Source: an uncultured Alphaproteobacteria bacterium (lineage in GTDB: Bacteria > Electryoneota > RPQS01 > DYHQ01). Taken from it: a stretch of DNA of 62,843 nt. The translations under genes and the position numbers were made by a program. The stretch is from the NCBI GenBank assembly GCA_964543855.1, contig CAZJAD010000004.1, positions 1 through 62,843 on the forward strand. Direction: 5' to 3'. The notes under the pieces are model-generated. The model ran no database searches. It saw nothing but the letters and a program-made list of their open reading frames with translations, and had not been told where the DNA came from. Shown in pieces: positions 6,031 through 57,673 of the stretch (positions within the stretch are counted from its first letter, which is position 1; the number at the start of each line of letters is the position of its first letter).

Positions 6031-6047
6031 CAAACGGGATTCATGGC

Positions 6048-11413: not shown

Positions 11414-11466
11414 GGACCGGACCCGATTTCCCGGGCATGCACCGAAAAACCCTGGCTCGACCGCTC

Positions 11467-11724
11467 TTAGGCAGCCTCCAAACGGGTGAGAAGCTCAACC
11501 ACCTTCTGGCGGATGCGCTCCTCCTTGTCTCCATCACGCTGGTTCTGTGCCAGCTTATCCCGCTGACGGCCTACATCCTCGAGCTTGTCGATGGCCTCTT
11601 TGTAGCGAGCTTCCCACTCCTGCACCTGTGTGCGGAGCTCATCGTTTTCTGAACGCAATCGGTTCAGTTTATCAAGAACTTGGTTGACCTTCTGCTCGAG
11701 ACTATCGAAAGCCTGGGTATCCAC
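11467..11724 (-). CDS. zapB: ZapB-like coiled-coil cell division protein
   Basis: 85-aa all-coiled-coil protein. FDSLEQKVNQVLDKLNRLRSENDELRTQ parallels the ZapB N-terminus. It lies immediately upstream of zapA. Confidence 0.6.
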   Translation of the reverse strand: MDTQAFDSLEQKVNQVLDKLNRLRSENDELRTQVQEWEARYKEAIDKLEDVGRQRDKLAQNQRDGDKEERIRQKVVELLTRLEAA

Positions 11725-11820
11725 GGCGTCGTCTGCCCTTCCTGACTTGATGTTGAAAGTGCGTCTTGCTGTGGCTATCCCCGTTGCCAGGCTTGTGTTT
11801 TGACGGGGAGTCCCCGAAAA

Positions 11821-28352: not shown

Positions 28353-29588
28353 TTACTGCTGCGCCATTTTTGCCTCCACGACACGAGGTGTGACGAAGAT
28401 CATGATCTCACTTTTCTCGTGGATCGTGGAATTGTAGGTGAAAATCCGGCCAACGAGCGGGATGGCGTGCAACAGTGGGACGCGGCGCTCGACATCATCC
28501 TTCTTGGAGCGTATCACTCCACCGATGACAACGGTCTCGCCGTTGTCCACAAGCAGCTTGGTTGAAATCTGCGAAGTCAGGATGATGACTCCACCGGTGA
28601 CCGTCGCTTCTCCCGAGAGGTCGCTCACTTCAGGCTGAAGATCCATCAACACCTGGTTGTTCGGATTAATGTGCGGCGTGACTCTTAACTTGACGGCTAC
28701 ATCGTAGAACTTCGTGATGATGTTGCCCGCTTGGTCGAGAGTATTGATCGGAATCTGTTTCCCCGATATGATGGTTGCGGTCTCGTTGTCAGAGATCAAG
28801 ACGGACGGTTGGGACAGCACCTCCGCTTTCCCCTCCTCTTCGAGCGTCTTAACCATGGCTTCCAAGGCAACGCCTTTCTGCAGGCGGCCAATTGTGAATG
28901 TGCCGGTCTGGTCAGTCACTCCAAGATTCACCTCCGCCCCTGCCTTCGTCGGCTGCAGAGGATTGTCCAGATTTCCCATAGACCAATCGATGCCCACTTG
29001 TCGCATCGCCTTGGTATCGACTTCGACGACTTTGGCCTCGACCAGCACCTGGTTCATCTGGCGGTCGAGGTTCTGGATGATCTCATGGGCTGTCTCGACA
29101 TTGGCGGGAATGTCCGTCACAATCAGCGTATTGGCGCGGATATCCGCCTGGGCCTTCCCACGCTCCGTCAGAAGTTTCTGAATCACTTCACGCAAATCCT
29201 CGGCGCGGGCGTATTTGATCTGAAAGATTCCAGTTTCCAGTTTCTCATTCCGAACGGCATTCTGGATATCCTCGAGGGTTGTCACACGGATAATGCCTCG
29301 GTCCTCAACGGCGACGAAATCATTCATCTGAAGGATGTTGTCGAGCGCCTGCCGCCAAGGAACATCATTGAGCAGGACGGTCACCGGCCCTTCGACCTTG
29401 GACCCCGCCACAATGTTCATTCCGGAGAACGCCGAAATGCTTCGCAAAACGGTCCGAATATCGGCTTCCTCCACATTCAGGGAGATGTTTCCTCCGGTTC
29501 CCCGGTACGGCACGGTCTGTTGCCCGGGGAGAGCTTTGACACTTACCAGCGCAGCGATCAGTGCTGCAACGCAGATGAACTGTTTCAT
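28353..29588 (-). CDS. pilQ: type IV pilus secretin PilQ (short form, no AMIN repeats)
   Basis: 411 aa with a signal peptide. N-terminal NISLNVEEADIRTVLRSISAFSGMNIV and secretin C-domain ...VPLLHAIPLVGRIFTYNSTIHEKSEIMIFVTPRVV. Confidence 0.9.
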   Translation of the reverse strand: MKQFICVAALIAALVSVKALPGQQTVPYRGTGGNISLNVEEADIRTVLRSISAFSGMNIVAGSKVEGPVTVLLNDVPWRQALDNILQMNDFVAVEDRGIIRVTTLEDIQNAVRNEKLETGIFQIKYARAEDLREVIQKLLTERGKAQADIRANTLIVTDIPANVETAHEIIQNLDRQMNQVLVEAKVVEVDTKAMRQVGIDWSMGNLDNPLQPTKAGAEVNLGVTDQTGTFTIGRLQKGVALEAMVKTLEEEGKAEVLSQPSVLISDNETATIISGKQIPINTLDQAGNIITKFYDVAVKLRVTPHINPNNQVLMDLQPEVSDLSGEATVTGGVIILTSQISTKLLVDNGETVVIGGVIRSKKDDVERRVPLLHAIPLVGRIFTYNSTIHEKSEIMIFVTPRVVEAKMAQQ

Positions 29589-29615
29589 GATACCTTCTCC
29601 ACCACGGCACCCGTT

Positions 29616-30257
29616 TTATTTGTTCTCTTTCGTACCCTCACCAGCCCTGACTGTCAGCGTGACCCGCTCGACCTCGCCGAATTCCACAAGCTGAAAGACA
29701 GCCTTTGTCTGGGTCACGGTCACGATCTTTCCTCGAAACACAGAATCTCCTTCACGAAGAAAGAAGTTGTTACCATCTTTGTCCCTCACCATTGCCAAGT
29801 ACTGACCACCACTCCAGACCACTCCGGTCAGAACGGCTCCATCGACGCGCAACAGATCGGTTTTGATGTCCTCGTCTGCCTTGCCTTGCGATATCAGCGG
29901 GCGGAACGGATCCCTTCGCCCTCGTGAATCATAAGCGAAGGGGTCTTCGCGGCGAAGGCTCGACCTCCGTGGCGCCACCTGGTTGGCCGCTCCAGAAGAG
30001 GGTGCTCTCGTCTCGCTTGGAGGGACCACCGTCGGGATATGGCCCGCGACGGCAGTCGAGTCCGTGACTGTGACAACTCCTTCTCGTTTCGGAGACGAGG
30101 ACTTCTCGTTCTGCCCGAAAGCAGTGCTCCCGCCCATCAAGACAACAAGAACCAGAAGGGCACTCACGCAAACATGCATTTTGCCGCAGATTGACTGAGA
30201 CCGCCTGCCGACTTCGGGGCCCGAGCAAGCGACATTCTGCCACTTTGAATCCATCAC
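29616..30257 (-). CDS. pilP: PilP-like pilus assembly protein
   Basis: C-terminal DPFRPL...LTGVVWSGGQYLAMVRDKDGNNFFLREGDSVFRGKIVTVTQTKAVFQ resembles the PilP beta-domain. Positioned between pilO and pilQ. The likely true start is the MHVCVSALLVLVVL.. Met at 30179. Confidence 0.55.
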   Translation of the reverse strand: MMDSKWQNVACSGPEVGRRSQSICGKMHVCVSALLVLVVLMGGSTAFGQNEKSSSPKREGVVTVTDSTAVAGHIPTVVPPSETRAPSSGAANQVAPRRSSLRREDPFAYDSRGRRDPFRPLISQGKADEDIKTDLLRVDGAVLTGVVWSGGQYLAMVRDKDGNNFFLREGDSVFRGKIVTVTQTKAVFQLVEFGEVERVTLTVRAGEGTKENK

Positions 30258-30267
30258 AGAACTCCTG

Positions 30268-30891
30268 TTAACTCCGCTTCGCAGCCGGTTTTCGGGTCTG
30301 TGGGCTCTCTGGAGTCGACACCGTGCCTGGTGAGCCCAGGGGCTTGAAGATATAGATTGTCGCCAGGAATTCCGCTTCCACGGTGTTCACCGACCTTCCT
30401 TTGCGGGGCGCCCAAGCCGTTGTTCTGAGCTCCGAGATGCTCACGATGCGCGGCAGCGCGGCGACCCTGGAAAGGAACTGCCCCAAGCGATGATAGGTGG
30501 ACAGCGTCTTGACTCGAATCGGATTCTCCCAATAGTACGGATGCTCGACGGCATCCAGCGGCCGGAAAAGAAGAAAGGTCACTTCGCTACTCCGACCGGC
30601 AAGGGTGATCCTCTTGAGCAAATCATCCATCTCCTTTTCCGTTGGCAGCAGCTCAAGGGCGGCTTCCCAGTTGACGGTCAATTGGGCGTAGGTTGCCTGG
30701 AGAGTATGGTAACTCTTCGCCACGCGTCTGCCTCGTTCCAGGCGTTCCCGCTCCTGTTTGAGTTTCTCGGCTGATTGCTTGATCGCCTCGCTCCTCGGCC
30801 CATAGACATAGTTGGAGTATCCGTAGACGAGGGCTATCGCCAAGCCGCCAAGAAGCAGCCATTTCTGAATGGCTGGGTTGCGCAGTTTCAC
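30268..30891 (-). CDS. pilO: type IV pilus assembly protein PilO
   Basis: 207 aa: N-terminal TM helix, coiled coil (AEKLKQERERLERG), and LPTEKEMDDLLKRITLAG..., typical of PilO. Confidence 0.7.
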   Translation of the reverse strand: MKLRNPAIQKWLLLGGLAIALVYGYSNYVYGPRSEAIKQSAEKLKQERERLERGRRVAKSYHTLQATYAQLTVNWEAALELLPTEKEMDDLLKRITLAGRSSEVTFLLFRPLDAVEHPYYWENPIRVKTLSTYHRLGQFLSRVAALPRIVSISELRTTAWAPRKGRSVNTVEAEFLATIYIFKPLGSPGTVSTPESPQTRKPAAKRS

Positions 30892-30893
30892 CG

Positions 30894-31349
30894 TTAGCCT
30901 CCCCCTCCCGAACCGACGGATGCGAACTGGGTCAAGTTCACCGACGGACAGATGAAATTGCCGCCCGCTTGCACCGTCGCTCCACCCACCCAGGAGAATG
31001 TCTTATCACGGTAGTAGTAGCTCACGGCGACATCGCCCATATAGTGATACGTGATTTTTCCTGTGATTGCATCCCGTTCACTTCCCAGATACAGGGTTCC
31101 TTCGAAGTGGCCGTTTTCGTCCGTATAGAACCAGCGATCGGGACCCTCGTACGGCACATCACTGGAAGGATCCGATTCAAGCAGGACGGCCACACCTTGC
31201 ACGCCCTGGGCCTCCGTTTCATCCACGAACACCCATCCCGAGAGCATCGCCGCGTCCGGGTACTCATCAATGCCCTCGGTACAACCTGATACGAGAAGAA
31301 TAATGGCGATCATGTACAACATAAGGGCAAGGGGGCTATACCTTTCCAT
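30894..31349 (-). CDS. lipoprotein with carboxypeptidase-regulatory-like beta-sandwich, inserted between pilN and pilO
   Basis: 151 aa with lipobox LLVSGC. GWVFVDETEAQGVQGVAVLLE...YTDENGHFEG fits the CarboxypepD_reg pattern. The stop lies 2 nt from the pilO start. Confidence 0.6.
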   Translation of the reverse strand: MERYSPLALMLYMIAIILLVSGCTEGIDEYPDAAMLSGWVFVDETEAQGVQGVAVLLESDPSSDVPYEGPDRWFYTDENGHFEGTLYLGSERDAITGKITYHYMGDVAVSYYYRDKTFSWVGGATVQAGGNFICPSVNLTQFASVGSGGGG

Positions 31350-33177: not shown

Positions 33178-34302
33178 TTACCCTTGCCCTTTCTGAAGAT
33201 CCCCCGTCGAAAACGCTCTCCGCGGAAAACGGAAGCGGAAAAGATTCCCTGTTTCGGGACCACTCTCTACGACGATCGTACCACCGAGTGATTCTGCGAG
33301 CATCTTCGCGATGGCGAGACCAAGCCCTGTGCCAACGACCTTGCCGGCCGCCTGCCCGCGGAAGAAACGTTCGAAGATGTGCGGAATCTCATCCTGCGGA
33401 ATTCCGGGGCCATTGTCTTCAACCGATACCTGCAACGCCTCTTCCGAATCCTCGACCGAGAGTCTGACGTTGCCCCCCGGAGGAGTGTAAACGATGGCGT
33501 TCTGCAAGAGATTGACCAGAATGCGACGCAGATGGTCGTGAGACGCCATAACTGGGCCCCGCACGGCGCCGAAGTTTGTCTCCACATGGAGACGCCGCCG
33601 CTCAGCCTCCGGCATGAAATCTCTGAGCACGCTCTCGATTACACCGATCACATCCACGACCTCGCTCGGACCATATAGGTAGTCTATCTCCAATCGGCGG
33701 TAGTCAAGGAGGTCCTCGGTGAATTTTGCCAACCGGTCCACCTCTTCGTCAATGATCTGCACATAGCGGGCGCGGCGCACATCGTCGATTCCCGGGTGCT
33801 GATAGAGCGTGTAGACATGCCCTTTGATCAGCCCAAGAGAGGTTCGCAGCGCAAAGTCCAGAGCTGCCCGGTGTTCTTCCGCGACATCCCAGAGTCGGCT
33901 GCCAAGAACGGTCTCTTGCGAAACATCCCGGACAATTCCCACAATCGCCCCAAGGTCACCGTCGGATGCGACACGAGCCTGGCGGCACTCGGCAGTGCGT
34001 GAGCCTCCATCAGCCGGCTGGAAGACAACGGTCGTGCGCTCCGGTCGGCCATCTTGAATAATCAACTCTACGGCCCGACGAGCCATTGGGATGCTGTCGA
34101 CCGACAAATCGTCGTAGTAACTCGTTCCAACGAGACTCTCCTCAGATTTCCCCATCAGTTGGCAGAAGACCGAGTTAGCGGCCACATACCTGCCCTCGGA
34201 ATCGAGCAGGAAGATCCCGTCGGGAGCGGCGTCGACGACTTTGTCCCAGAGGCCGACATCGGGCAGACTCTCGAGACCGGACCCAGCTTCTCTTTCAAGC
34301 AT
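33178..34302 (-). CDS. cytoplasmic PAS-domain histidine-kinase-like protein (non-canonical H-box)
   Basis: 374 aa. PAS region (PDGIFLLDSEGRYVAANSVFCQLMG), DHp-like helix DFALRTSLGLIKGH, and an intact HATPase domain (NLLQNAIVYTPPGG, VEDNGPGIP, FERFFRG, GTGLGLAIAK). Confidence 0.8.
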   Translation of the reverse strand: MLEREAGSGLESLPDVGLWDKVVDAAPDGIFLLDSEGRYVAANSVFCQLMGKSEESLVGTSYYDDLSVDSIPMARRAVELIIQDGRPERTTVVFQPADGGSRTAECRQARVASDGDLGAIVGIVRDVSQETVLGSRLWDVAEEHRAALDFALRTSLGLIKGHVYTLYQHPGIDDVRRARYVQIIDEEVDRLAKFTEDLLDYRRLEIDYLYGPSEVVDVIGVIESVLRDFMPEAERRRLHVETNFGAVRGPVMASHDHLRRILVNLLQNAIVYTPPGGNVRLSVEDSEEALQVSVEDNGPGIPQDEIPHIFERFFRGQAAGKVVGTGLGLAIAKMLAESLGGTIVVESGPETGNLFRFRFPRRAFSTGDLQKGQG

Positions 34303-34690
34303 GGCCAGCCTCCGTTGCTTTGCGAGCCGTCAAGACCTCTTCAATGCGCGAGAGGAGATCGGCAGGCAGAAAAGGCTTCGTGAGGTAATCCACAGCGCCA
34401 GCATCAAATCCCTCCAAACGATCTTCCCCCTGGCCTTTGGCGGTCAAGAAGATGATCGGCATCCCGCGCGCTTCCGGCACCTGGAGCAACGCTCGAGCGA
34501 GAGCGAAGCCATCCAACTCAGGCATCATGACATCAAGAATCGCGACATCGGGCTTTTCTCGACGAACAATCTCAACGGCCTGCGCAGGCTGAGTCGTCGC
34601 CAGTACACGATACCCTTCTTCGCTCAGATTGAACTCCAGAAGATCGACATAACGCTCATCATCGTCAACAATGAGCACACTTGCTTTCAT
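34295..34690 (-). CDS. stand-alone response regulator receiver
   Basis: 131 aa with LIVDDDE, phospho-Asp context VAILDVMMPELDG, IIFLTAKG and DYLTKPF. Overlaps both neighbouring genes (ATGA and ATGCTTGA). Confidence 0.88.
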   Translation of the reverse strand: MKASVLIVDDDERYVDLLEFNLSEEGYRVLATTQPAQAVEIVRREKPDVAILDVMMPELDGFALARALLQVPEARGMPIIFLTAKGQGEDRLEGFDAGAVDYLTKPFLPADLLSRIEEVLTARKATEAGHA

Positions 34691-36060
34691 TCGTACTGCT
34701 CCTCAAGATAGACGTCGTCTTTGGCCGTTCCTTCCGAGAGCGCCTTCTCAAAATCCTCCCGACCCGGAGACTCGGAGAGTCCCATGATATTCAACACCTC
34801 GTCCACGAGTTCCGGCTTGATCTCTTTGCGTCCAGTGATGGAAAGCGCCACAACTTGGTCCAGGATGTCGAGGAGGCGAGCAACCGTGCCATCCGCGCGA
34901 GTGACGAGATAGGCGAACACTTGCGGGGGAACCGGGATCCCACCCTTGCGCCGTGCGAGGATTTCCGTTTTGGCTTCAAGCGAGTACGGACCGATGCCGG
35001 CGACGAGTCCTTCGTCCATCGCGATCTTCAACTTGGGAAACAGACGCGGCACGGGGCGTGGATCGGTACGACAGGCCGCGATCAGCCATTTCCCATCCTG
35101 TGCCAGAGCGCGGAAGGTCTCGCAGAGTTCATCCTGAGCCCACGGTCGTTCAAAGAGATCCTCAAAATCGTCTACAAAGAGCAGGTCGAGCGCCCGATAG
35201 AAATAGCGAAAGGGACTGAGACGATTCTCTTTGAGTGCCTCCAGATATTCCATGCCGAATCGCCGTCCAGTTGTATAGAGAAAGCGCCGTTCGGGAGCAT
35301 GAGCCGTCATCCAGTTGGCGATCGCCATGAGGAGATGGGTTTTGCCACATCCAGTCTCACCAAAACAAACGAAAGGATTCGCGCTCTCCTCTCTTCTTCC
35401 TTCAGCAATCATCCTCGCGACCGAAAGGGCCAATTCGTTGGGACCATCCCTCACGAAAGAGTCGAAAGTCTTGCCCTTGTCAAGATCGACGCCGCGACCC
35501 ATCTGTTGATAGCGATCATCACACAACTGGTGTTGACGTCGCAGAAGAAAACGAGGTGGTTCCAGGGAGACGGCGCTCCTCGTATCCGGTGATGGCGGAT
35601 GACCATAATGCAAGTACAGGGCGCGTTCGATCGCTTCTCGACTGGCAATGAACGGGATGATCTCCAAATCGGTCACCTGCTTCAGAGCCATCATCGTTTC
35701 TCGGTTCAACGGGTCAGCAAACGCGATGGCCAAGCCGTTGGATGTCCGACGAATCGGCAAGAGATTGTGAGCATGAGCAAGCGCAGCCGGAATGTGGTGA
35801 ATGGCTTCCCGTTCGATCTCGATATCATCCAGCTTGAGATAGCGGTAATGGTAGATGTCACAAAGGAATGCCAACATCTCTTCTTCGGTCAAATATCCGA
35901 GAGCGACGAGGTGATCCTCGATCTCTCCTCCCTCGCGCCACTGCTTCTCCTGCGCGGTCCTGACCTGCTCTCTTGTGACGATCTCTGCCTCCAACAAGCG
36001 TTCATAGACCGGAATCTGTGACGCCAACTCAGTCATGCCCGATTGCCTTTCTCCCCACAC
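34687..36060 (-). CDS. T2SSE_N (GspE N-terminal-like) domain fused to DnaA/Hda-type AAA+ ATPase domain
   Basis: 457 aa. The N-terminal half parallels the PilB N-domain (LVALGYLTEEEMLAFLCDIY, HNLLPIRRTSNGLAIAFADPLN, IIPFIASREAIERAL). The C-terminal half has TFDSFV, Walker A GETGCGKTHLL, Walker B LLFVDDFEDL and IAACRT. No DNA-binding domain IV follows. Confidence 0.75.
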   Translation of the reverse strand: MWGERQSGMTELASQIPVYERLLEAEIVTREQVRTAQEKQWREGGEIEDHLVALGYLTEEEMLAFLCDIYHYRYLKLDDIEIEREAIHHIPAALAHAHNLLPIRRTSNGLAIAFADPLNRETMMALKQVTDLEIIPFIASREAIERALYLHYGHPPSPDTRSAVSLEPPRFLLRRQHQLCDDRYQQMGRGVDLDKGKTFDSFVRDGPNELALSVARMIAEGRREESANPFVCFGETGCGKTHLLMAIANWMTAHAPERRFLYTTGRRFGMEYLEALKENRLSPFRYFYRALDLLFVDDFEDLFERPWAQDELCETFRALAQDGKWLIAACRTDPRPVPRLFPKLKIAMDEGLVAGIGPYSLEAKTEILARRKGGIPVPPQVFAYLVTRADGTVARLLDILDQVVALSITGRKEIKPELVDEVLNIMGLSESPGREDFEKALSEGTAKDDVYLEEQYE

Positions 36061-37279: not shown

Positions 37280-38464
37280 TTAAGAAGCTCCTTCTTCTGT
37301 CATCCTCTTCTTCAAGGAATGAATCTTGTCCTCTACGTTCTCGAACATTGCCTGCTGGCTGTGGACATTCTCGAAATGGGCCAGAGCCTGAGATAGATTC
37401 CCCAACATCTTGTGAACTTCCCCTTTGATGAGCTCCAAACGAAGTCGATCCTCGGGAGGCTGCTCTTCACTTTTCTCGAAGCTCTCCAAGAGCGCCAGAG
37501 CTTTCTCCGGGTTGCCTCTCGCCATGACACATTGGGCTGTGGCCAAGTCGGCCTTGAAACAGAAGTTGCTATCACGCCGAGCCTGCTTGAATTCGCTTAT
37601 GGCCGCATCCCACAGCTTCATCTCTTGATACACGACGCCTAAGTCGTAGTGATCCCGACCTTCACCTTCCGGCAGGCCGGTCTCTTCCGGACTCTCCGGA
37701 GTCGCTTCACGCGGTGGCTCACGAGTGACCGGAGGCTGGGATGCTTCAGATGCGAATGCGCCTCTCGACTCGTCCTCAAAGGCTGGCGCACCATCTCCCG
37801 CGGTGTCCAAGGTCATCAGCCCTTCCGCGCCTCCTGCCACATGGACGGGTTCAGTCTCCGGTGGTAGCTCATCCTCGTGAGGAGCTGTCTCAACTGGTTC
37901 TGCCTGCTCCACGACTTTCTGGCGGGAGTCTACGAACTTCTCCAGATCCGTCTGAAGCTCCTGGTCCTCAATCTGCGCATCTCGGAACAGGGGCAGGAGC
38001 TCCTCAAGGAGATGAGCATGAGTCAGGTCACGTTCAATGACCCTGCGGAAGAACGCACGCAGTCCAGGTTCAGATGGGGGACTGCAGAGGCGCAAGTAGG
38101 TCCGCAGTGAGGCCAGGGAATCGGCGACATACCCCATGGCGAAGTAGTGTTCAGCGAGCATCAGATGGAGATCCGTCTCGTCGGGGCTGGTGCGGAGGAT
38201 TTTGGTCGTGAGCGCCAGCGCATTCTCGTGGAGGCCCTCGCGCGCATATCCATCGGCGGCTCGACGCCACGCCTCGACCGCTCCTTGAAGAGATTTGCTC
38301 CGAAAGCGTACGTCACCGACAGCGTTCCAAGCAGCGCAGTTCTTTTCATCAGCCGAAGCGGTTTTTTCGAGCTCAGCAAGCGCCTTTTTCCATTTTCTCT
38401 GGCGCAGCAAATCGCGTGTGCGTCGCTCGGGTCGCAGTTGGTGACCGAATAGTCTCATCAGCAT
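37280..38464 (-). CDS. TPR-repeat protein with acidic Pro/Glu-rich linker
   Basis: TPR-like helices flank an acidic low-complexity segment (EQAEPVETAPHEDELPPETEP...PPREATPESPEETGLPEGEG). The start was chosen at Met 38464, 5 nt after the upstream stop. The ORF track runs to 38680 but overlaps the PilX-like gene. Confidence 0.65.
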   Translation of the reverse strand: MLMRLFGHQLRPERRTRDLLRQRKWKKALAELEKTASADEKNCAAWNAVGDVRFRSKSLQGAVEAWRRAADGYAREGLHENALALTTKILRTSPDETDLHLMLAEHYFAMGYVADSLASLRTYLRLCSPPSEPGLRAFFRRVIERDLTHAHLLEELLPLFRDAQIEDQELQTDLEKFVDSRQKVVEQAEPVETAPHEDELPPETEPVHVAGGAEGLMTLDTAGDGAPAFEDESRGAFASEASQPPVTREPPREATPESPEETGLPEGEGRDHYDLGVVYQEMKLWDAAISEFKQARRDSNFCFKADLATAQCVMARGNPEKALALLESFEKSEEQPPEDRLRLELIKGEVHKMLGNLSQALAHFENVHSQQAMFENVEDKIHSLKKRMTEEGAS

Positions 38465-38469
38465 GTTCC

Positions 38470-40113
38470 TCAACTGATCTGTCGCCAGCTTCCTCGCTGG
38501 ATCGTATGAACTCGCGGCGTACCGGGTGGCCAGTTCGCGGGATCCAAGAGATCCACATCGAATCCCCAATTTCGATTTGGCGCCGTGTAATAGCCGCCGT
38601 ATTCCCAACTTCCGGTGGCCTTCCGGCTGAACCAGAGGTCGATGATGCTCCCGCGGAAGTTCAAGTTCACTCCAGACCATCTCTCAAGAAAGCGGAACAG
38701 GTTCTCAAGCCCTCCGCTATATGTGCCGCCGTAGATGGTTTCCACATGCCCGGTCATGATGCAGGCATTAACCGTCGTGGCGACGGCATTGCGATTGTAC
38801 AACGGACCGGACGATTTGGAATCATCCCAGTTGGAAGAAAGGATCGTGATGGCGTCGCAAATGAGCGCCGACCCCTTCTTGTTGACGTTGTTGTAGTTTC
38901 CCCACACGTAGAGGGGATTGTCGGTGGCAATCGTAAGTCCTCCATCAGGCAGGAGGGAGGCGTTGCGTATGCGCACAGCGTCGTGCGCGCCTGCTCCTGA
39001 GATGTAGAGAATTCCATTGCAGGGCGTGTATCCATTCGCCATCATCGCGCCGACATCGAGCTCGAGCACATCCATCCACTCGCCCTCGCGGTCATCCCAA
39101 TATGAATTCGGCGCGTAGTTCATCACACTGGATGGTGGGCTCAACGGGTTGCCGCTGCTGTCGGTCATGACGCCATCGACGATTCGCGTGCAGGCTTTGT
39201 ACCAGTACCTGGCATCAACGAGCTCCGGCGGGTCACCGGCTTGTCCGCGTTCGATGATCTCATACATATCCGTCAGAGGAGGCAGGGGCAGCGTGAGGTC
39301 GTGGGTGCTGTGAGCACCATCACGCACCATTCCGCCCCAGCGCTCGATCGCCTCCGTCGCCCAGGTCGCTTGTCTCTCGTCCAGCCAATAGGCGCCGGTC
39401 CACATGTTCCGATAGGTGCCCGTTTGATCGCGGATTAACACGAAACCGGGTGGGTCGACATGGCCGCCATCCTTGCGGTAATGCCAGATATCCCCCACTG
39501 CTGTTACATAGGAATCGCAGAAGATCCCCGACTCCGCGCCGATATAGAGGTCGCGGTTTGTATGTATCCGGCCAAGAAAGGTCATCTGGGGACCCGGAAA
39601 GATTTCCAGATCATCATCATAGAAAACACCGAACTGGAAGAGAGGGATGAATTGGTGTTCGATGACCCGTTCGATTCTCGCCGAACGCCGACCCCCCTGC
39701 GCCTCACTGGTAATCACATACTTTTTGATATAGCCAGTCAGACCGACGTAATCACCAGACTGGATCACTTCCTGGAGCAGACCTCCCTGTGGTACAATCG
39801 AATAGGCCGAGAACTGGAAGCCCTCCAGTGACGGCTGAGGAAGGTTGTCCAACACTGCCTGGCTGGGCGAGAGATTGTTGGGGAGCAAGGCGGCCAATTC
39901 GCCTGCGGCCCACTCGGCCCCCGCCTCTGCCGCACAAAAGGTCCTCACATCATCGACATCCCGAGCCGTGACCCGAGCCTGGCCGATGGACCGGATGGCC
40001 GTCGTGGCGCCCACAAAGAGCATCACCGACATCATCACGACGGCGAGGACCAGCACCGCGCCTTTCTCGCTGGAGCGGCGCTCTTTTTCCTTACCTTTCT
40101 TCTTCCGAATCAT
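38470..40113 (-). CDS. large PilX_N-domain pilus assembly protein
   Basis: 547 aa. The N-terminus has a basic leader, a TM helix, and GAVLVLAVVMMSVMLFVGATTAIRSIGQARVTARDVDDVRTFCAAEAGAEWA (the PilX N-terminal pattern ...AR....A...AEAG.E). A large extracytoplasmic domain follows. Confidence 0.65.
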   Translation of the reverse strand: MIRKKKGKEKERRSSEKGAVLVLAVVMMSVMLFVGATTAIRSIGQARVTARDVDDVRTFCAAEAGAEWAAGELAALLPNNLSPSQAVLDNLPQPSLEGFQFSAYSIVPQGGLLQEVIQSGDYVGLTGYIKKYVITSEAQGGRRSARIERVIEHQFIPLFQFGVFYDDDLEIFPGPQMTFLGRIHTNRDLYIGAESGIFCDSYVTAVGDIWHYRKDGGHVDPPGFVLIRDQTGTYRNMWTGAYWLDERQATWATEAIERWGGMVRDGAHSTHDLTLPLPPLTDMYEIIERGQAGDPPELVDARYWYKACTRIVDGVMTDSSGNPLSPPSSVMNYAPNSYWDDREGEWMDVLELDVGAMMANGYTPCNGILYISGAGAHDAVRIRNASLLPDGGLTIATDNPLYVWGNYNNVNKKGSALICDAITILSSNWDDSKSSGPLYNRNAVATTVNACIMTGHVETIYGGTYSGGLENLFRFLERWSGVNLNFRGSIIDLWFSRKATGSWEYGGYYTAPNRNWGFDVDLLDPANWPPGTPRVHTIQRGSWRQIS

Positions 40114-42167: not shown

Positions 42168-45100
42168 CTACCGATCGACTCTCCCAACGGCGGGAGGATC
42201 GACCGGGGACTCCTCTGGGGGCATCTGCGGAAGCAAGAGAAAAGTCTCTGTAAAAGCCCAGAGGTCGCCGTTCTTCGACTCAACCTCAATGAGCACCGGC
42301 GTGGCCGTCGCATCATCCTGAGTCGTCAAATTATTGAAGAAAGATATGGTGTAGATGGTGTCGCCTGGACACTCCACCGTGAACACGTTTGGATAGGTTA
42401 ATCCGGCGTTCGCACTGAGGCGCACGATAGACTCCGAATCAATAGGCCAGTGATTCCCGCCTTCCCAGAGTTCGAAAGTAACCAGGGCATTCTGGCCGAT
42501 GTAGAGTGTTCGTTCATTCGGGTCGCCGTTCACTGTGGCCTGGAGGATTTGGATATAATCATAAGGCGCAGTGAAACGAACCCAGCAAGTCGCCCATACA
42601 ATGGCGCTCTGATTGTTTTGTGTTTCGCCCTCGGTGGTAACGAGGACCTTGGCAATGCCATCGCGATCCGGCGCACCCCAACAGTTTATCTGGCCACCCA
42701 GATTCGGATCTTCCAGCGTGTTCCACCATCGGTCAAGCGTTGGCATCGGATTACCGCCGAAGAGAAGCACGGAGGCAAACCCGTCGGCGTCGGTGAAACC
42801 CGTTGCCGTCGCTATGACCCCTCCCGATGTCGTGAAGTACACAGCGGTTCCCTCGGTCACAGGGTTGTTCCATCGATCACCGACGATGGCCGTGATGCGC
42901 ACCGAATCACCGACGGCGCTCCAGCCCATGAGATCACACGGCTCAGAGGCAACTTTGATGTGACTTGTATTGAAATAACCGCAGCCGTCGGGATTGTAGA
43001 TATCTTCGATGTAAGGCGGTCCGGCGTAGATGAGAATCTCCGTCGTGATGGCTGAGACATTATACGAATTGCCTTCACACGTGCCATGACTGCGGGCACG
43101 AATGCGAACGGTTCCGGAACGATAGCCACTGGTGTACGACACACTGGCCTGCCCGTTAATCGTGGGAATCGAGTCTTCGGATGAGAGACTACCCATGGAA
43201 TCAGGATGCGTTATCGGCTGGGAGTAGATGTCAAACCATACCAGGGTCCCGTCAACCACGGGATTGTTGCTGGCATCTTTAACTGTCGCCGTAATCAGGA
43301 GAGTCTCGTTGCGACCACTCTCGCGCACACCGACAGAGTGAGGGTAGTACTCCATCTCTACACTCCACGGACAGCCGGGTACCAGATAGATCGTGTAGTT
43401 ATCACTGCCGGTTCCGGCGCTTGCCGTGATCGTGGCAATGCCGGTTGTCGGCGACGAGAAGGCTACGCGCGCCACTCCGTCTCCGTTCGTTGTCCGACTC
43501 TGGGGGATGTTTCCGATTGTGGTCTGAAACTGAACCTCCACATTGGAGAGCAAATGGCCTACTGCATCCGTCACGGTGGCGTAGATCGTGTCGACCGAGA
43601 TACCATCGGCTTTCAGTGTGTCGCTCTGCGCGGCCAATTGAACAACCGCGGGCGGTCCAACCCTGTAAATCACCTGAACGCTGTCGCGAGCGCTGGGATT
43701 GGCTGCGGCCCATGCCAGAACCATCACGGTGTCCGGGTCTGCTCCGGACGTGAGGACATTCGTCGCCGCACCACCGGTGGTTGTGCGGAGATTCTCAATC
43801 GATCCCGAATTAGGCACAAGTGAGAACTGAATCTGCGTGCCGTTGGGTACGGGATTGCCACCCTGATCTGTTACGACCACCGTGATGATGGAGGTAGAGG
43901 AATTGTCTGCGAGGATGATCGTCGGATTCGCCGACAGGTACAGGTAGGTGGGTGTGGATTCCGCAAACCCGACCTCCACCGTATCTCTCAGCGTGTTGCC
44001 GTAGCGTGCGATCACCCTGGCATTGCCGGTTGTTGTCCCAGATGTCAGCGTCACGGTCGCGATCCCTGAGCTGTTGGTCATCGCCATATTCGGGATGCTA
44101 CCCAAGCTCGTTCCAAAATACACGACCGCCTCTCCAATGGCTACCGTGCTCGTCGTCTCATAGAGCTGCGCTTGAATGCTTGATGTCGAATGCCCGTCGG
44201 CCACGATCATTCCGGGGCTGGCAGAACAGACGAGTGTGACGCCAAGCACGGAGACAGTCGCTTCCGATGTTCCCCGCTCGATGAGCGCTTCGATTTGCGT
44301 CTCCACATCTTGATTAATAGCACTGCTTCTGAAAGTCGCGTAAGCGTATCCGTCCACGCCCGTCGACACGACTGAGGGAGTCACCGTCCCGACTCCCGAC
44401 AAGACCGTGAATGTCACCTCCTCGCCTGCGGTCGGCCATCCGCCTTCATCAACGACATAAGCCTGGAGTTGAGTCGTGGAAACGCCGTTGCCCAGAAGCG
44501 TTGGGCTCTCGGAGTAGAGAGCGATTACATCACCTTGTGTGGAAATCATACTGACCTGTGTCATGGCCCGCAGCGTGTCACCGTACTGAGCGGTGACGCT
44601 GGCAAGACCAACGGTCACGCCTGATGTGAGCGAGACGCTTGCCATGCCACTGGTGTTCGTCTGCCCGCTTTGTGGAATCGAGCCCAGCGTTGTCGCAAAG
44701 ATGACCGTGACATCGGCCAGAGCGACATGAGAGCTCGTTTCGGTGACCTGAGCCCGCACCTGTGTCGTTGCCTCTCCATCAGCCGGGAGAATTTGGTTTT
44801 GAGCAGTCACGGTGATCGTGATGCCGCGCATATGGATGGTCACATCGTCGGAAAGCCCACCAGTCGCTGCGGTCACCTGCTGAGTCTCATCGGCGCTCGA
44901 CGCTCCAGATCGGAATGTCGCCAGCGCAATACCCGAACTGTCGGTCACCGATTGCGTAGGATACACGGTTCCAATTCCGGAACCGACTTGCCATGTGACC
45001 TGTGCTCCGAATACCGGTACCGCACTTTCATCGACCACATAAGCCTCCAGAGCTGTGGTGGCCATCCCATCCGCGAGCAGGGATGTTGACTCTGCCTGCA

Positions 45101-47216: not shown

Positions 47217-47239
47217 GGCGCGACTCTCCTTCACCAATG

Positions 47240-53424: not shown

Positions 53425-54624
53425 CTACTTGATGGCTCCCACCAGATCAAACATGGGCAGATACATGGCGATGAGCATACCACCGATAAGTCCCCCCATG
53501 AATACAATCACAATCGGTTCAATCAAGGCGGTCATTGCGGCCACGGCGGCGTCGACCTCTTCATCGTAGAAGTCCGCGATTTTGCCGAGCATTTCGGCAA
53601 GCTTGCCCGTCTGTTCCCCGACCGAAATCAACTGCACAACCATCGGCGGAAAGACTCCCGACTCCTTTAACGGAATCGTGATCGTCTTCCCCTGGGAGAC
53701 GTCGCGGCTCGTGCGCTCGATCGCCTTCTGAATGATAGCGTTTCCAGCCGTCTTGGCCGTGATGTCGAGGCCCTGAAGAATGGGCACACCCGATGATATC
53801 AAGACGCCAAGCGTCCGCGTGAAACGCGCCACGGCTGTCTTGCGAATCACCATGCCGATGACGGGTGTTTTGAGCAGCATCTTATCAACCACGAGCTTCC
53901 CATTCTCGGTCTTGTAAAACCTCCGAAACAGGAAGACAAAGACCACGGTCGCCCCAAGACTGGGTAGGATTCCCTTCTGCACGAGATGGGAAATCGCAAT
54001 GACGAATAGGGTTGGCGCTGGCAATTGCGCGTCCATCTGGGCAAACATGTCCGCAAACACCGGAATGACTTTGAGAAGCAGAAAAGTCGTTGCGCCGATG
54101 GCCACCGTCATGATAACCGCTGGGTAAATCATCGCGCCTTTGACTTTGCGCTTCAGGGCGTTGGCTTTTTCCAAATAAATGGCAAGACGGCCGAAGACCA
54201 TCGCGAGCACGCCACCGGTCTCTCCAGCCTCGACCATGTGCGTGAAGAGACTGTCAAACACACGCTTATGCTTTGACAGGGCTTCGGCAAGCGTGGAGCC
54301 ACCTGACACCGAATTGTGCACTTCGGCGATTACCTTGCCGAACCCTCGATTCGAGACTTGGCTCGCAAGAATGTCGAGACACTGGTCAATGGGCAACCCA
54401 GCGTTCACCATCGTCGAAAAGAGACGCGCAAAGATGGCCAAATCCTTGGTCTTCACCCGTACGGGAAATTGGAATTTAATCTCCCGGGGTTTCGGCCGTA
54501 TTTCACCGACCACGATGCGCTTGGCGCGAAGTTTCGACATCGCTTCGGCCTTGTCATGCGCTTCCATCTCCCCTTCAACATGCTTTTGGCCGGCGGATCG
54601 GCCCGTATAGACGAAGACAGGCAT
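53425..54624 (-). CDS. pilC: type IV pilus platform protein PilC (GspF family)
   Basis: 399 aa. Two T2SSF repeats (FARLFSTMVNAGLPIDQCL, FTRTLGVLISSGVPILQGL) and three TM segments. Confidence 0.92.
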   Translation of the reverse strand: MPVFVYTGRSAGQKHVEGEMEAHDKAEAMSKLRAKRIVVGEIRPKPREIKFQFPVRVKTKDLAIFARLFSTMVNAGLPIDQCLDILASQVSNRGFGKVIAEVHNSVSGGSTLAEALSKHKRVFDSLFTHMVEAGETGGVLAMVFGRLAIYLEKANALKRKVKGAMIYPAVIMTVAIGATTFLLLKVIPVFADMFAQMDAQLPAPTLFVIAISHLVQKGILPSLGATVVFVFLFRRFYKTENGKLVVDKMLLKTPVIGMVIRKTAVARFTRTLGVLISSGVPILQGLDITAKTAGNAIIQKAIERTSRDVSQGKTITIPLKESGVFPPMVVQLISVGEQTGKLAEMLGKIADFYDEEVDAAVAAMTALIEPIVIVFMGGLIGGMLIAMYLPMFDLVGAIK

Positions 54625-54670
54625 TGTGTCACACCTCTCGGTTTGCAGATTGAGATTACTTTGTCAATCC

Positions 54671-55813
54671 TTATGCAGTCACATGAGCCAGAAGTCGGGC
54701 CCGCTCGGCAGCGGTTGTCGGTTTCCTGCCGAGCATCTTCTCCAGTTCCTCCGGCAGGCTCGAATTTGCCAGAGCACGGTCCGCAGACACCGAACCAGCG
54801 ATCACCAGCTCGTAGAGTGCCTGGTTCATCGTTTGCATGCCGAAGCGCCGCGATACCTGAATGATGCCGTACATCTCATGTACCTTGGCGTCTCGAATGA
54901 GCGCACGAATGGCGGGGGTGCACATTAGCACTTCCGCTCCCAGAATCATGCCTCCTCCGGTCTTTTTCGGCAGGAGCTTCTGCGTCACCACGGACTCCAG
55001 ACACAGGGAGAGCTGAGCTCGGACCTGACCTTGTTGATGAGGTGGAAAAACATCAATAATACGATTGATGGATTCGGTCGATGAATTCGTGTGTAGCGTC
55101 GCAAAGACAAGATGTCCGGTCTCCGCCGCGGTCAGTGCCGCGCTGATAGTCTCCAGGTCCCGCATCTCTCCTACGAGAATGACATCAGGGTCCTGACGGA
55201 GTACATACTTCAGTGCCGTGGCAAATGACTTCGTGTCTGCACCCACTTCGCGCTGGTTCACCAAGGCTTGTTTATGGGCATGGACATACTCCACTGGGTC
55301 CTCAATGGTGATGATATGGACCGGTCGCTCGGCATTGATGCGGTCCACGATGCTGGCGAGACTCGTGGTTTTCCCGCAACCGGTTGGCCCGGTGACCAAG
55401 ACTAATCCCTTGGGCTTCTGAATGAAGCTCTGGCAGATTTTTGGAAGTCGAAGCTCCTCAATCGTAGGAATACTGAAAGGAATTGCTCGAATTACTGTGG
55501 ACAGTGACCCACGCTGGAGAAATACGTTTCCCCGGAAGCGTGAGAGTTTCTCGATGCCGAAAGCGAAATCGACTTCAAGTTCGAGTTCGAGCCGCTTCCG
55601 TTGTTTGTCCGCCAACAGGCTATAAGCGAGCTGCTTGCATTCCTCCGGAGTCAGTGGGTCGTAGCTCAGCGATACAAGATGTTGATCGACCCGGATGCGG
55701 GGCGGACTCCCCGCGCATACATGCAGATCCGTACCTCGGGCTTCGACAAGCTCGTGCAACAGACGCCGAATATCCACTATATAGTCCTCCTTCTCTCCTT
55801 CGCATTCCACCAT
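54671..55813 (-). CDS. pilT: type IV pilus retraction ATPase PilT/PilU (copy 2)
   Basis: 380 aa with GTDLHVCAGSPPRIRVDQHL, Walker A GPTGCGKTTS, EDPVEY, GEMRD and TGHLVFATLHT. Confidence 0.88.
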   Translation of the reverse strand: MVECEGEKEDYIVDIRRLLHELVEARGTDLHVCAGSPPRIRVDQHLVSLSYDPLTPEECKQLAYSLLADKQRKRLELELEVDFAFGIEKLSRFRGNVFLQRGSLSTVIRAIPFSIPTIEELRLPKICQSFIQKPKGLVLVTGPTGCGKTTSLASIVDRINAERPVHIITIEDPVEYVHAHKQALVNQREVGADTKSFATALKYVLRQDPDVILVGEMRDLETISAALTAAETGHLVFATLHTNSSTESINRIIDVFPPHQQGQVRAQLSLCLESVVTQKLLPKKTGGGMILGAEVLMCTPAIRALIRDAKVHEMYGIIQVSRRFGMQTMNQALYELVIAGSVSADRALANSSLPEELEKMLGRKPTTAAERARLLAHVTA

Positions 55814-55984
55814 TCATTCATGCGTCTCTCTCGACTGTCAAAACAAGCCCAACCCCCTCGTGAGTCTCTCGACCAGGATTCCCTCATTCCGGTGCCACGG
55901 ATATTTTCGGCTCGATTTTGGGGGACTCCTTTGAGGAAAACAGATGTCGGGTTGGGTGATGAATAGTGATACCCGGTTCCTGCC

Positions 55985-57673
55985 TCATTGTCCTGTTACC
56001 CGCAACACCTCTTCGATTGTCGTGATGCCGTCTTCGAACTTCCGCAACGCGCCCATCCGCAAAGTCAGCATGCCTTCCTTGACCGCCTGATCTTCGATTT
56101 CCTGGGTCGAAGCGTTCTCTAAGATAAGCACGCGCATTCTCGGAGAAATTGGCGTAACCTCATAAATACCTGTTCGTCCCTTGTAACCGCTGTTGCTACA
56201 ATCAAGGCAACCCGTTCCGTGGTAGAACACCTTCCCTTTGACATCTTTGGGATCCAGGCCGGCCTCCCGCAGCGCCTCAGGATGAATGTCAGCCGGTTCG
56301 CGGCATTTCGGGCAGATCTTGCGCATCAAACGCTGCGCCATGATCAGGTTGACGGAACTGGACACGAGAAACCGTTCGACTCCCATGTCAATCAACCGGC
56401 TAATGGTTGCCGCCGCGGAATTCGTGTGCAGCGTCGACAGAACCAGGTGTCCGGTCAGCGCGGCACGGATTGCAATCGAGGCTGTTTCAAGGTCTCGGAT
56501 CTCTCCGATCATGATAATATCCGGGTCCTGTCGCAGAAAAGATCTTAGAGCAGACGCGAATGTCAGTTTTACTTCCTCGCGTATCTGCACTTGATTCAAG
56601 CCCGGAAAACTGTACTCGACTGGGTCCTCGGCCGTGATCGTGTTGACATCTGGGGTGTTTATGTTGGTCAGTGCACTGTAGAGTGTGGTTGTTTTGCCCG
56701 AACCAGTCGGACCGGTGACCAGAATCATGCCATAGGGCATGCGAATAGCTGCGTTGAAATCCTTGAGAGCCTTCGGTTCGAATCCAAGCAAAGACAGGTC
56801 GAGCGTCAGATTCGTCTTGTCCAGAATACGCATCACGACCTTCTCGCCAAACATGGTAGGCAAGGTGGAGACGCGCAAGTCAATCGCATGATCCTCGATC
56901 TTCATCTTGATATGACCGTCCTGAGGGACTCGCCTTTCCGCGATGTCAAGATTCGCCATGATTTTGAGGCGGGAGCTGATGGCACTGCGCAAATGCAATG
57001 GCGGCGACATCACTTCGTAAAGGGTTCCATCAATGCGCGTCCGTATTCGCAGGGATTTCTCATACGGTTCAATATGAATGTCGGATGCACCTTTCTTGAC
57101 GGCGTCGGCGATAATACCGTCCACGAGCTTCACGATCGGCGCACTCTCGATCGCTTCCCTGATCTGACTGACCTCGGCGTCTTCCGCCTCCTCGACGAGC
57201 TCGATACCGGTGCCTCCCATGTCCTTCAGAAACCTATCCAGCGTCCCATCCATGTGGTAGTGCTTCTCGATCGCGCGCAGATACTGCGTCTCCGTGATGA
57301 TCACTGGCTCGACATCGAAGCCCGTGATGAACTTGATATCATCGAGGACAAAGTCAATCGTGGGATCAATCAGGCCAATCGTCAACATCTTGCCTCGACG
57401 CCTGATGGGAAAGACCTGATACTTCTGGATGAATTCGGGGGAAAGGAGATGGAGAACTTCCTCGCTGACTTCCATGTTCTCCAAATCCATGAGCGGCAGG
57501 TTGTAATAGTCGGCGACGAACTTGGCAATCTGATCCTCGGTGACAACGCCCAGCTTGACCAGTTCCGTCACGACGGAGTTCCCCGAGTCTTTCTGGCGCG
57601 ATTTGAAAACCAGAAAATTATCCTGGGTTATCTGATTCGCATTGAGGAGTAGATTAGGAATACGCGATGTCAT
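55985..57673 (-). CDS. pilB: type IV pilus assembly ATPase PilB (GspE family)
   Basis: 562 aa. N-terminal T2SSE_N domain, Walker A GPTGSGKTTT, EDPVEY, GEIRD, TGHLVLSTLHT, and a tetracysteine motif CPKC...CLDC. Confidence 0.93.
   Translation of the reverse strand: MTSRIPNLLLNANQITQDNFLVFKSRQKDSGNSVVTELVKLGVVTEDQIAKFVADYYNLPLMDLENMEVSEEVLHLLSPEFIQKYQVFPIRRRGKMLTIGLIDPTIDFVLDDIKFITGFDVEPVIITETQYLRAIEKHYHMDGTLDRFLKDMGGTGIELVEEAEDAEVSQIREAIESAPIVKLVDGIIADAVKKGASDIHIEPYEKSLRIRTRIDGTLYEVMSPPLHLRSAISSRLKIMANLDIAERRVPQDGHIKMKIEDHAIDLRVSTLPTMFGEKVVMRILDKTNLTLDLSLLGFEPKALKDFNAAIRMPYGMILVTGPTGSGKTTTLYSALTNINTPDVNTITAEDPVEYSFPGLNQVQIREEVKLTFASALRSFLRQDPDIIMIGEIRDLETASIAIRAALTGHLVLSTLHTNSAAATISRLIDMGVERFLVSSSVNLIMAQRLMRKICPKCREPADIHPEALREAGLDPKDVKGKVFYHGTGCLDCSNSGYKGRTGIYEVTPISPRMRVLILENASTQEIEDQAVKEGMLTLRMGALRKFEDGITTIEEVLRVTGQ

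Follow-up and report, generated by a model that had tools for sequence, protein, structure and literature searches.

The 62,843-nucleotide stretch of contig CAZJAD010000004.1 (assembly GCA_964543855.1) considered here, referred to in its entirety as the window, carries a type IV pilus gene cluster. Within this cluster lies a gene whose product joins an MshEN domain, of the kind found at the N-terminus of PilB, to an AAA+ module corresponding to domain III of DnaA. We refer to the gene and its product as MshEN-DnaA; its features and those of its neighbours are collected in Table 1. The rest of the window is occupied by housekeeping genes (glnA, pheT, thrS, the RNase Y gene and pfk), and we therefore take the stretch to be chromosomal DNA. 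The hosts are uncultivated and all of the support offered below is comparative.

An earlier note on this DNA, made from its letters alone, placed the gene at 34687-36060. The list of open reading frames does contain such a frame, on the minus strand (a detail that has to be specified), with 457 amino acids counted from a GTG at 36060. However, seven orthologues from metagenomes, of 448-449 amino acids, start at the counterpart of M9 in the 457-residue form, and the ATG at 36036 has GGGGAGAAAGG just upstream. For these two reasons we place the start at 36036, and the gene most likely spans 34687-36036 (449 amino acids plus stop), with the GTG at 36060 as an alternative. Residue numbers below refer to the 449-residue form. 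A scan for promoter and terminator consensus sequences around the operon returned nothing above chance.

Table 1. Features of the MshEN-DnaA locus and of the associated pilus genes, in window coordinates.
Feature	Coordinates	Strand	Evidence
MshEN-DnaA(III) gene, probable extent	34687..36036	(-)	Open reading frame list, orthologue lengths, upstream GGGGAGAAAGG, translation check of coordinates
MshEN/GSPII (PilB N1D-like) domain, residues 1-150	35587..36036	(-)	Pfam, PDB profile matches, AF2 model, PilB identity
Degenerate cyclic di-GMP motif-1 position (PVYERLLEAEIVTREQVRTAQEKQ)	35941..36012	(-)	Relaxed Wang 2016 regular expression, NF053729 score
Disordered inter-domain linker, residues 151-176	35509..35586	(-)	pLDDT <50
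DnaA domain-III AAA+ module (base and lid), residues 181-425	34762..35496	(-)	Pfam, PDB profile, Foldseek
Walker A GETGCGKT, intact	35338..35361	(-)	Lys invariant in all 249 modules compared
Walker B LLFVDD, intact; DN in one orthologue	35167..35184	(-)	Orthologue alignment, census
Sensor-1 region AACRTDPR	35056..35079	(-)	Census
Box VII KLKIAMDEG	35008..35034	(-)	HMM alignment to B. subtilis DnaA, census
Box VIII/sensor-2 region DGTVARLLDIL	34861..34893	(-)	Census
Receiver, single-domain response regulator	34295..34690	(-)	Pfam Response_reg E=7e-29
Kinase-like protein, histidine-less (PAS, degenerate DHp, HATPase_c)	33178..34302	(-)	Pfam, orthologue alignment
PilM-PilN fusion, ~571 amino acids	31427..33142	(-)	Pfam PilM_2 E=2e-54, PilN E=7e-17
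151-residue lipoprotein-like frame, PilO, PilP-like frame, PilQ secretin	28353..31349	(-)	Pfam Secretin, phmmer synteny
PilT-like ATPase (T2SSE core, no N1D), 61 nucleotides upstream of MshEN-DnaA	36098..37225	(-)	Pfam T2SSE E=5e-45
TPR protein, conserved in the same gene string	37280..38680	(-)	Pfam TPR families, synteny
Motor genes of the same pilus system: pilB 55985-57673, pilT 54671-55813, pilC 53425-54624	53425..57673	(-)	Pfam

The N-terminal half is matched by Pfam MshEN (PF05157, T2SSE_N) over residues 71-155 (E=3.3e-17; score 62.7 bits, cutoff 23.1), and its best NCBIfam match is PilB (TIGR02538; 57 bits, residues 20-154, the first 138 model positions). A profile built from the seven orthologues and compared with the PDB matches the N-terminal domains of PilF, PilB and MshE over the same half. 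The structure was modelled with AlphaFold (AF2) from an input of 30 diverse family members; the resulting mean predicted local distance difference test score (pLDDT) was 81, and the model shows two well-defined domains joined by a disordered linker, whereas the seven close orthologues alone gave a pLDDT of 49. In a Foldseek comparison its N-terminal half superposes on V. cholerae MshE-N (5htl) with a template modelling (TM) score of 0.84 and a root-mean-square deviation (rmsd) of 2.4 Å over 139 columns. This half is also 27% identical to the N-terminus of the PilB encoded in the window (141 amino acids, E=1e-16), and the two proteins share no other similarity. Family model, predicted fold and direct identity thus agree with the initial reading of this half as a PilB-like T2SSE_N domain. 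The absence of a secretion-ATPase core behind it, likewise proposed at the outset, is borne out by the lack of any match to the T2SSE motor core (PF00437) at E<=0.1. Its absence, together with the conserved architecture, leads us to reject a PilB fragment or split gene.

In some MshEN domains this region binds cyclic di-GMP (c-di-GMP) through a motif that is degenerate here. The first helix (PVYERLLEAEIVTREQVRTAQEKQ) has lost both glycines and the leading basic residue; the relaxed motif of Wang et al. 2016 (PMC5013675), applied as a regular expression, is unmatched in the window protein and in all seven members of its clade (0/7), and the NCBIfam model of the motif (NF053729) scores 36.7 bits for the window protein, just under its cutoff of 38. 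The suggestion that the helix lacks the motif positions therefore appears sound at the level of sequence. The PilB of the window (N-terminus MTSRIPNLLLNANQITQDNF) is without the motif as well; this pilus system has no MshEN protein that resembles a c-di-GMP receptor.

The C-terminal half, which is followed by nothing more than a 24-residue acidic tail, matches Pfam Bac_DnaA (PF00308) at residues 193-353 with E=1.5e-33, scoring 116.7 bits where the cutoff is 23 and spanning model positions 1-160 of 162, and there is a weak match to Hda_lid. Neither the DNA-binding domain IV (Bac_DnaA_C, PF08299), whose absence had been predicted, nor domain I (PF11638) finds a Pfam match in the protein. Of the full-length NCBIfam models, DnaA (TIGR00362) gives 151 bits against a cutoff of 343.9, covering positions 100-337 of 437 only, the domain-III part, and Hda (TIGR03420) gives 80.3 bits against 194.8. 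In the PDB comparison the orthologue profile aligns without gaps to domain III of B. subtilis DnaA (8bv3, E=3e-42), at 148 bits for DnaA versus 42 for Hda. The modelled structure tells the same story: Foldseek places the C-terminal half on 8bv3 with a TM score of 0.94, an rmsd of 1.5 Å and 30% identity over 234 columns, while Hda structures score lower, at about 0.7-0.77. Profiles and model therefore agree with the proposal of a DnaA domain III/Hda-type module, and of the two DnaA is the closer. The protein is no true orthologue of DnaA or Hda, given the sub-cutoff scores and the missing domains, and much weaker scores tell against a helper of the IstB/DnaC type.

Between the two domains, the linker carries a short motif conserved in the clade, EPPxFLLRRxxQL..DRY (35509-35562, minus strand), in which E159, P161, F163, L164, R166 and L171 are invariant in the orthologue alignment. 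It may serve as a docking peptide, although it matched no known motif.

Downstream, MshEN-DnaA is translationally coupled to a receiver gene, whose start overlaps its stop (ATGA, 34690-34687), and the receiver is coupled in the same manner to a PAS-containing kinase-like gene (ATGCTTGA, 34302-34295); both overlaps, described in the earlier note, can be read directly in the sequence. The receiver retains all of its phosphorylation residues, D10, D11, D53, T83 and K105 being invariant in eight orthologues. The description of the third gene as a PAS kinase holds for its PAS and HATPase_c (E=6.5e-30) domains, both of which are present, but not for its phospho-acceptor histidine: the H-box reads D(F/Y)ALRTSLGLIKG, with Phe or Tyr in the histidine's place, and no histidine anywhere in the protein is invariant among eight orthologues. 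As previously noted, the three genes sit between pilT and pilMN, Pfam identifying the flanks as the PilT-like ATPase and the PilM-PilN fusion. The latter corresponds to the cytoplasmic stator ring and is our candidate docking partner of MshEN-DnaA. The PilO assignment further downstream draws on precomputed Pfam annotation of orthologous loci. Motor and regulatory genes (pilB, pilT, pilC, a pilS-like gene and pilR) lie 14-22 kb from MshEN-DnaA in the same window.

The MshEN-DnaA gene lies within a type IV pilus cluster in 28 of the 29 other contigs examined, distant relatives included, and the conservation of its pilus neighbourhood thus extends well beyond the window. By comparison, the same scan found pilus genes adjacent to ordinary dnaA in none of 68 control loci; in four of these a PilB-like reading frame occurs 8-9 kb away on the other strand. 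The linkage takes two principal forms. In the PilM-linked clade the gene string runs tetratricopeptide repeat (TPR) protein, PilT-like ATPase, PatA_N protein (in distant members), MshEN-DnaA, receiver, PAS-kinase-like protein, PilMN, PilO and secretin, and was found in the window and in 11 contigs with nine further distinct proteins, down to 34% identity and including a Calditrichota metagenome-assembled genome (MAG). PilM-PilN follows MshEN-DnaA, either directly or beyond the receiver and kinase-like genes, in every PilM-linked locus that is long enough; a Hydrothermota relative (33% identity) is encoded directly upstream of PilMN with neither receiver nor kinase gene. Members with a long linker, on the other hand, lie directly upstream of pilB-pilT-pilS-pilR in 13 of 13 contigs, among them the closed 7.9 Mb chromosome OW818658.1. 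Three further variants occur inside pilT/pilB/pilC clusters. The association holds in at least three named phyla and between subfamilies that are only 26-37% identical, although the loci are not independent samples of bacterial diversity. On these comparative grounds we regard MshEN-DnaA as very probably a dedicated pilus accessory protein.

The architecture had been presented as one without a characterised family, and we found none in open-access papers or bioRxiv; it is, however, not rare, and belongs to a large family rather than being an isolated oddity. A word-indexed search with the single protein gave seven relatives only, and it was an exhaustive profile search of 1.84 billion representatives that revealed more. 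About 110 of its best 150 matches (clusters at 50% identity) contain both domains, as judged with purpose-built hidden Markov models (HMMs) for the N- and C-terminal halves; this figure is a lower bound. The compact members, with the window protein among them, are 385-460 amino acids long. Long-linker members (550-1200 amino acids) have the MshEN domain, then a low-complexity linker of 200-700 residues, and the DnaA-III module at the C-terminal end, while a third group comprises giants with extra modules. A search with an alignment of the long-linker subfamily returned 556 clusters at 90% identity (E<=1e-40), of which the best 120, the portion inspected, all carry PF05157 and PF00308; the weaker matches may include ordinary DnaA. 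The organisms named for these matches are mostly Candidatus Hydrogenedentes, and the source names are "DnaA/Hda family protein", "ATP-binding protein" and "chromosomal replication initiator protein DnaA". Statements about taxa draw on few MAG labels, some of which look wrong (e.g. "Puniceispirillum", "Alphaproteobacteria"). Neighbour joining of 234 DnaA-III modules recovers just two groups as clearly monophyletic, namely the window clade and the pilB-linked subfamily (71 of 76). A single origin of the fusion is not established, because the tree leaves the MshEN-linked modules unresolved as one clade apart from DnaA.

Catalytic and sensor positions were compared in a census of 249 DnaA-III modules aligned to one HMM, with the B. 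subtilis sequence (the 8bv3 match) as reference and with E. coli numbering. Alignment and translation confirm the Walker A and Walker B motifs at the places originally assigned to them, and the first Walker B aspartate is kept in nearly all of the modules. The arginine finger (R285), read as missing from box VII in the earlier note, is indeed lost: the position is Ala in the window protein and Ala or Val in its clade (0/7 Arg), as against Arg in 75/76 pilB-linked members and 86/86 ordinary DnaA proteins. R281 is replaced by Lys in all seven clade members, and is Arg in 65 of 76 pilB-linked and 85 of 86 ordinary sequences. The stretches likened to sensor 1 and sensor 2 are correctly positioned, but the key residues are absent from both. 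At sensor 1, the clade has an invariant Arg at the position of D269, an Asp in 71/76 pilB-linked and 86/86 ordinary proteins; at sensor 2, R334 is Ala in the window and Ala, Asn or Glu in the clade (0/7 Arg), with Arg in every pilB-linked (76/76) and ordinary (86/86) sequence. The other arginine of the ARLL stretch, beside the sensor-2 position, occurs in two of the seven orthologues only. The c-di-GMP motif core is likewise present in 65 of 76 pilB-linked members, while most compact members are without it. Since the finger, the sensor-2 arginine and the c-di-GMP motif have been lost while P-loop and Walker B are kept, the protein of the window clade is most likely, judging from sequence, a pseudo-ATPase that binds ATP but does not hydrolyse it.

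The loss of several catalytic residues could also be taken as a sign of a decaying or non-functional fusion that hitch-hikes in the operon. We find this scarcely credible. The frame is unbroken in all seven orthologues at 59-89% identity, with more than 100 invariant columns that take in the P-loop, Walker B and a clade-specific ACRxDPR / PKLK / RPW signature, and gene position and translational coupling are kept down to about 35% identity.

A role in DNA uptake deserves mention at this point. Many bacteria take up DNA by means of type IV pili, and DnaA domain III binds single-stranded DNA (ssDNA) in its ATP state, a structure of which (3r8f) is among the fold matches; the module might thus bind incoming ssDNA at the base of a competence-type pilus. 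The residues concerned make this very unlikely. R245, a basic ssDNA contact that is Lys or Arg in 66 of the 68 dnaA control loci, is replaced by Trp in every member of the window clade and by Glu or Asp in 62 of 76 pilB-linked members, and the position equivalent to V211 is not conserved. Nor were comEA, comEC or dprA seen in the clusters.

The replacement of R245 by Trp also counts against a coupling between pilus and replication, in which the module would co-assemble with or cap the DnaA filament, or stimulate hydrolysis in the manner of Hda, so that surface contact feeds into initiation. Its greater closeness to DnaA than to Hda in NCBIfam, PDB-profile and structural comparisons is in keeping with this idea, as are the pilB-linked modules, which share about 40% identity with DnaA domain III and retain the finger. 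Yet the window clade is devoid of the arginine finger on which Hda-type action depends, no beta-clamp-binding motif of the QL[SD]LF type was seen by eye in the N-terminus or linker, and domains I and IV are missing. The genes, moreover, reside in pilus clusters and not near dnaA or dnaN, and dnaA loci show no converse linkage to pilus genes. We consider such coupling improbable, and extend the same judgement to its radical variant, in which subunits are exchanged with genuine DnaA and pilus activity times replication. The link to DnaA-type regulation offered as one option in the earlier note is thus not upheld.

A further alternative, drawing on the more complete members of the family, is that of an assembly or positioning hub, whose ATP-state self-assembly, head-to-tail as in DnaA, nucleates or positions pilus machines, for example at the pole, while MshEN recruits PilB or PilM. 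Such a protein would be a functional analogue of TadZ/CpaE in Tad pili or of localisation factors of the FimV/FimX type. The pilB-linked relatives combine 200-700-residue low-complexity or coiled linkers with the full oligomerisation set (finger, R281 and sensor 2), and one cluster holds three MshEN-DnaA proteins, one of them a 1990-residue giant, together with an MshEN-only protein. Genes suggestive of polarity control also occur nearby: one relative (locus L093) is encoded beside two Roadblock/LC7 (MglB-like) genes and a PatA_N gene, and PatA_N lies upstream in Calditrichota-like loci. The window clade, however, has neither the arginine finger nor R281 (Lys instead), both needed by DnaA for ATP-dependent oligomers, and its linker is short (~30 amino acids). 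A hub of this kind suits the window protein less well than the long-linker subfamily, and as a general explanation we hold it to be unlikely, if clearly the most serious of the alternatives considered.

We favour instead a role in motor engagement at the pilus base. The GSPII/N1D domain sets extension ATPases apart from retraction ATPases, probably contacts the PilM stator by analogy with GspE-GspL crystal structures (4PHT, 2BH1), and the two kinds of ATPase compete for that stator (Roberge and Burrows review, PMC11656802). An N1D-type domain without a motor, encoded beside pilM or pilB, points to an accessory that occupies or bridges the docking site and thereby influences motor choice. In the mechanism we propose, the N1D-like domain would seat MshEN-DnaA on the PilM(N) ring, where it would gate or bias the engagement of PilB, PilT or the adjacent PilT paralogue. 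The AAA+ module, held by the flexible linker, would act as a nucleotide-dependent switch of conformation or self-association. In the wider family this switch looks fully competent, with finger and sensor 2 present and the c-di-GMP motif at least partly kept; in the window clade it would bind ATP without hydrolysing it in the manner of DnaA. That the protein docks at PilM or the pilus base and gates motor engagement is a tentative proposal by analogy, to which we would give slightly less than even chances. The earlier note had already imagined a switch or scaffold on the PilM/PilB/PilT platform, and this remains the favoured reading, although as an analogy-based proposal rather than an established function.

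How the state of such a switch might be set in the window clade is suggested by its neighbours. Among the contigs examined, the receiver and kinase-like pair occurs only beside the finger-less clade. Members of this clade, which lack the finger, the sensor-2 arginine and the c-di-GMP motif and are marked by Trp at the R245 position, always have the pair, whereas members that keep finger and sensor 2 (the pilB-linked subfamily, the Hydrothermota relative and loci L092, L094 and L096) never have it downstream. From this pattern, seen in few lineages, we infer that control by phosphorylation state replaced control by small molecule and hydrolysis. A precedent exists in Caulobacter (PMC4211667), where the kinase-like DivL has a Tyr at the usual His position and senses whether DivK, a single-domain receiver, is phosphorylated. 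The window pair resembles DivL-DivK in combining a PAS kinase-like protein that has an aromatic residue at the histidine position with an intact single-domain receiver; unlike it, the pair belongs to a pilus operon and not to cell-cycle control, and the likeness is drawn from architecture. By this analogy, the co-translated receiver and the histidine-less kinase-like protein would set the state of MshEN-DnaA through reverse signalling of the DivK/DivL kind. What is directly observed is the domain make-up, the state of the motifs, the overlaps between the genes and the synteny with pilus genes in distant lineages; that the protein docks on PilM, gates the motors, binds ATP without turning it over and answers to the receiver and pseudokinase is inferred.

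Several observations weigh against this reading, and we note them together. The loss of sensor and finger residues could also mean that nucleotide binding has been lost altogether, and the invariant Arg at the sensor-1 position is without an interpretable precedent. The two main subfamilies adjoin different partners, PilMN and PilB respectively, so they need not act in one and the same way. One relative, L093, is not beside core pilus genes at all, and its Roadblock/LC7 and PatA_N context suggests motility or polarity regulation. Finally, the loci sampled are related by descent and do not count as independent cases: most of those linked to pilB come from one phylum, and those linked to PilM probably from one lineage of the FCB group.

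The domains themselves are well known, and comparison with their characterised counterparts indicates what is new in their combination. With DnaA domain III (8bv3 and 8btg of B. subtilis, 2z4r of T. maritima, 2hcb of A. aeolicus) the module shares its fold, a gap-free alignment of about 230 residues at 30% identity, the N-terminal TFDxFV motif, Walker A, Walker B (DD) and the lid domain. It differs from DnaA in that domains I, II and IV are absent, that finger, R281, sensor-1 Asp, sensor-2 Arg and ssDNA contact are replaced, and that the gene belongs to a pilus operon rather than to dnaA-dnaN. Hda/HdaA is comparable as a DnaA-III-only paralogue with no DNA-binding domain and through the weak Hda_lid match, but is more distant than DnaA in score and TM; the window protein has neither its clamp motif nor its essential finger, and has an MshEN domain instead. 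The N-terminal half shares the two-subdomain fold of the GSPII (MshEN, N1D) domains of PilB, MshE and PilF (5htl), but no N2D and T2SSE core follow it and the tandem c-di-GMP motif is degenerate.

Non-motor MshEN architectures have been described before, and include the NfrB glycosyltransferase, MshEN-REC, the MshEN_N-AAA_31 protein EpsG, FrgA and others (Wang et al. 2016, PMC5013675, supplementary table). MshEN-DnaA resembles these in its use of MshEN as a portable regulatory or docking module on another output domain; a DnaA-type output is, however, absent from that table, and the gene is tied to pilus clusters. We found no published description of an MshEN and DnaA fusion in open-access papers or in bioRxiv, in line with the earlier note, which knew of no characterised pilus component of this architecture. 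The protein thus presents known domains in a new, conserved combination, and the DnaA module in a new cellular context.

Analogues can also be sought among accessory proteins of other surface machines. TadZ/CpaE of Tad pili and ArlH (FlaH) of the archaellum are cluster-encoded accessories that bind ATP, turn over little or none of it, and act on a motor ATPase as organisers or regulators. Their folds, ParA/MinD-like and KaiC/RecA-like respectively, are unrelated to that of MshEN-DnaA, and the resemblance would be one of function only, without homology.

Some further observations concern the loci and proteins encountered in these searches. In the window, two adjacent sigma-54-dependent regulators (REC-Sigma54_activat-HTH_8; 47240-48610 and 49650-51104, minus strand) follow the PilS-like kinase, where only one would be expected, as PilR. 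A 1691-residue protein with 12 Big_1 and 10 Invasin_D3 repeats (42168-47243, minus strand) heads the minor-pilin, PilX-like and TPR part of the cluster; its position is conserved in orthologous loci L001, L003, L004 and L009, and it is perhaps a giant adhesin associated with the pilus. The PilM-PilN fusion occurs in all PilM-linked relatives as it does in the window, the Hydrothermota locus L008 included. In locus L094 (GCA_030620115.1, JAUXFG010000024.1), four genes for MshEN proteins follow one another between pilD and pilB (2359-13973); their products are an MshEN-DnaA of 983 amino acids, an MshEN-only protein of 436, an MshEN-DnaA of 398 and a giant of 1990 (MshEN and two DnaA-III modules). 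PatA_N (PATAN) genes adjoin MshEN-DnaA in several relatives (L093, 2086-3747; L009, 9297-9977; L095, 2988-3701), and stand immediately upstream in Calditrichota-like loci.

The searches also returned DnaA-III modules in other settings. Proteins of about 650 residues with two tandem DnaA-III modules, but with neither MshEN nor domain IV, include P0009, P0010, P0028, P0035 and about 20 others. Locus L022 encodes, at 763-4857 on the plus strand, a 1365-residue protein in which a long TPR array is fused to a C-terminal DnaA-III module (Bac_DnaA E=5e-66), and this case suggests that the DnaA module without domain IV has been combined with several different protein-interaction domains. Window-type pilus synteny is present in L006 (DYHQ01000033.1) and L007 (CAZGVT010000141.1), whose proteins are 65% and 37% identical to the window protein and which are labelled "Candidatus Puniceispirillum sp." and "uncultured Alphaproteobacteria". 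The presence of S8 peptidases with Por_Secre_tail, like the Calditrichota relative, points to an origin in the FCB group, and both labels are therefore probably the result of misbinning.

Taken as a whole, the comparisons can be accommodated by a possible, though still tentative, history in which a DnaA-derived module was recruited as a type IV pilus regulator in Hydrogenedentota, Calditrichota-like FCB lineages and Hydrothermota. Ancestrally it would have combined c-di-GMP binding with DnaA-style self-assembly on PilB, and in the window clade it would have turned into a pseudo-ATPase connected, on PilM, to a module of the DivL/DivK type. The choice between extension and retraction motors at the PilM/PilC platform is an open question, and the role of the PilB N1D/MshEN domain is poorly understood (PMC11656802). 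The present family offers an N1D that is naturally detached from its motor and joined to a well-understood nucleotide switch. Its paired natural variants, competent beside pilB and degenerate beside pilM with receiver and pseudokinase, make N1D docking and its regulation testable with recombinant proteins. Hundreds of family members are misleadingly annotated as "chromosomal replication initiator protein DnaA" or "DnaA/Hda family protein", while theirs is, as far as we have found, an unusual use of the DnaA AAA+ module outside replication control. If our reading is correct, these proteins would constitute a previously unrecognised class of pilus accessory ATPase.

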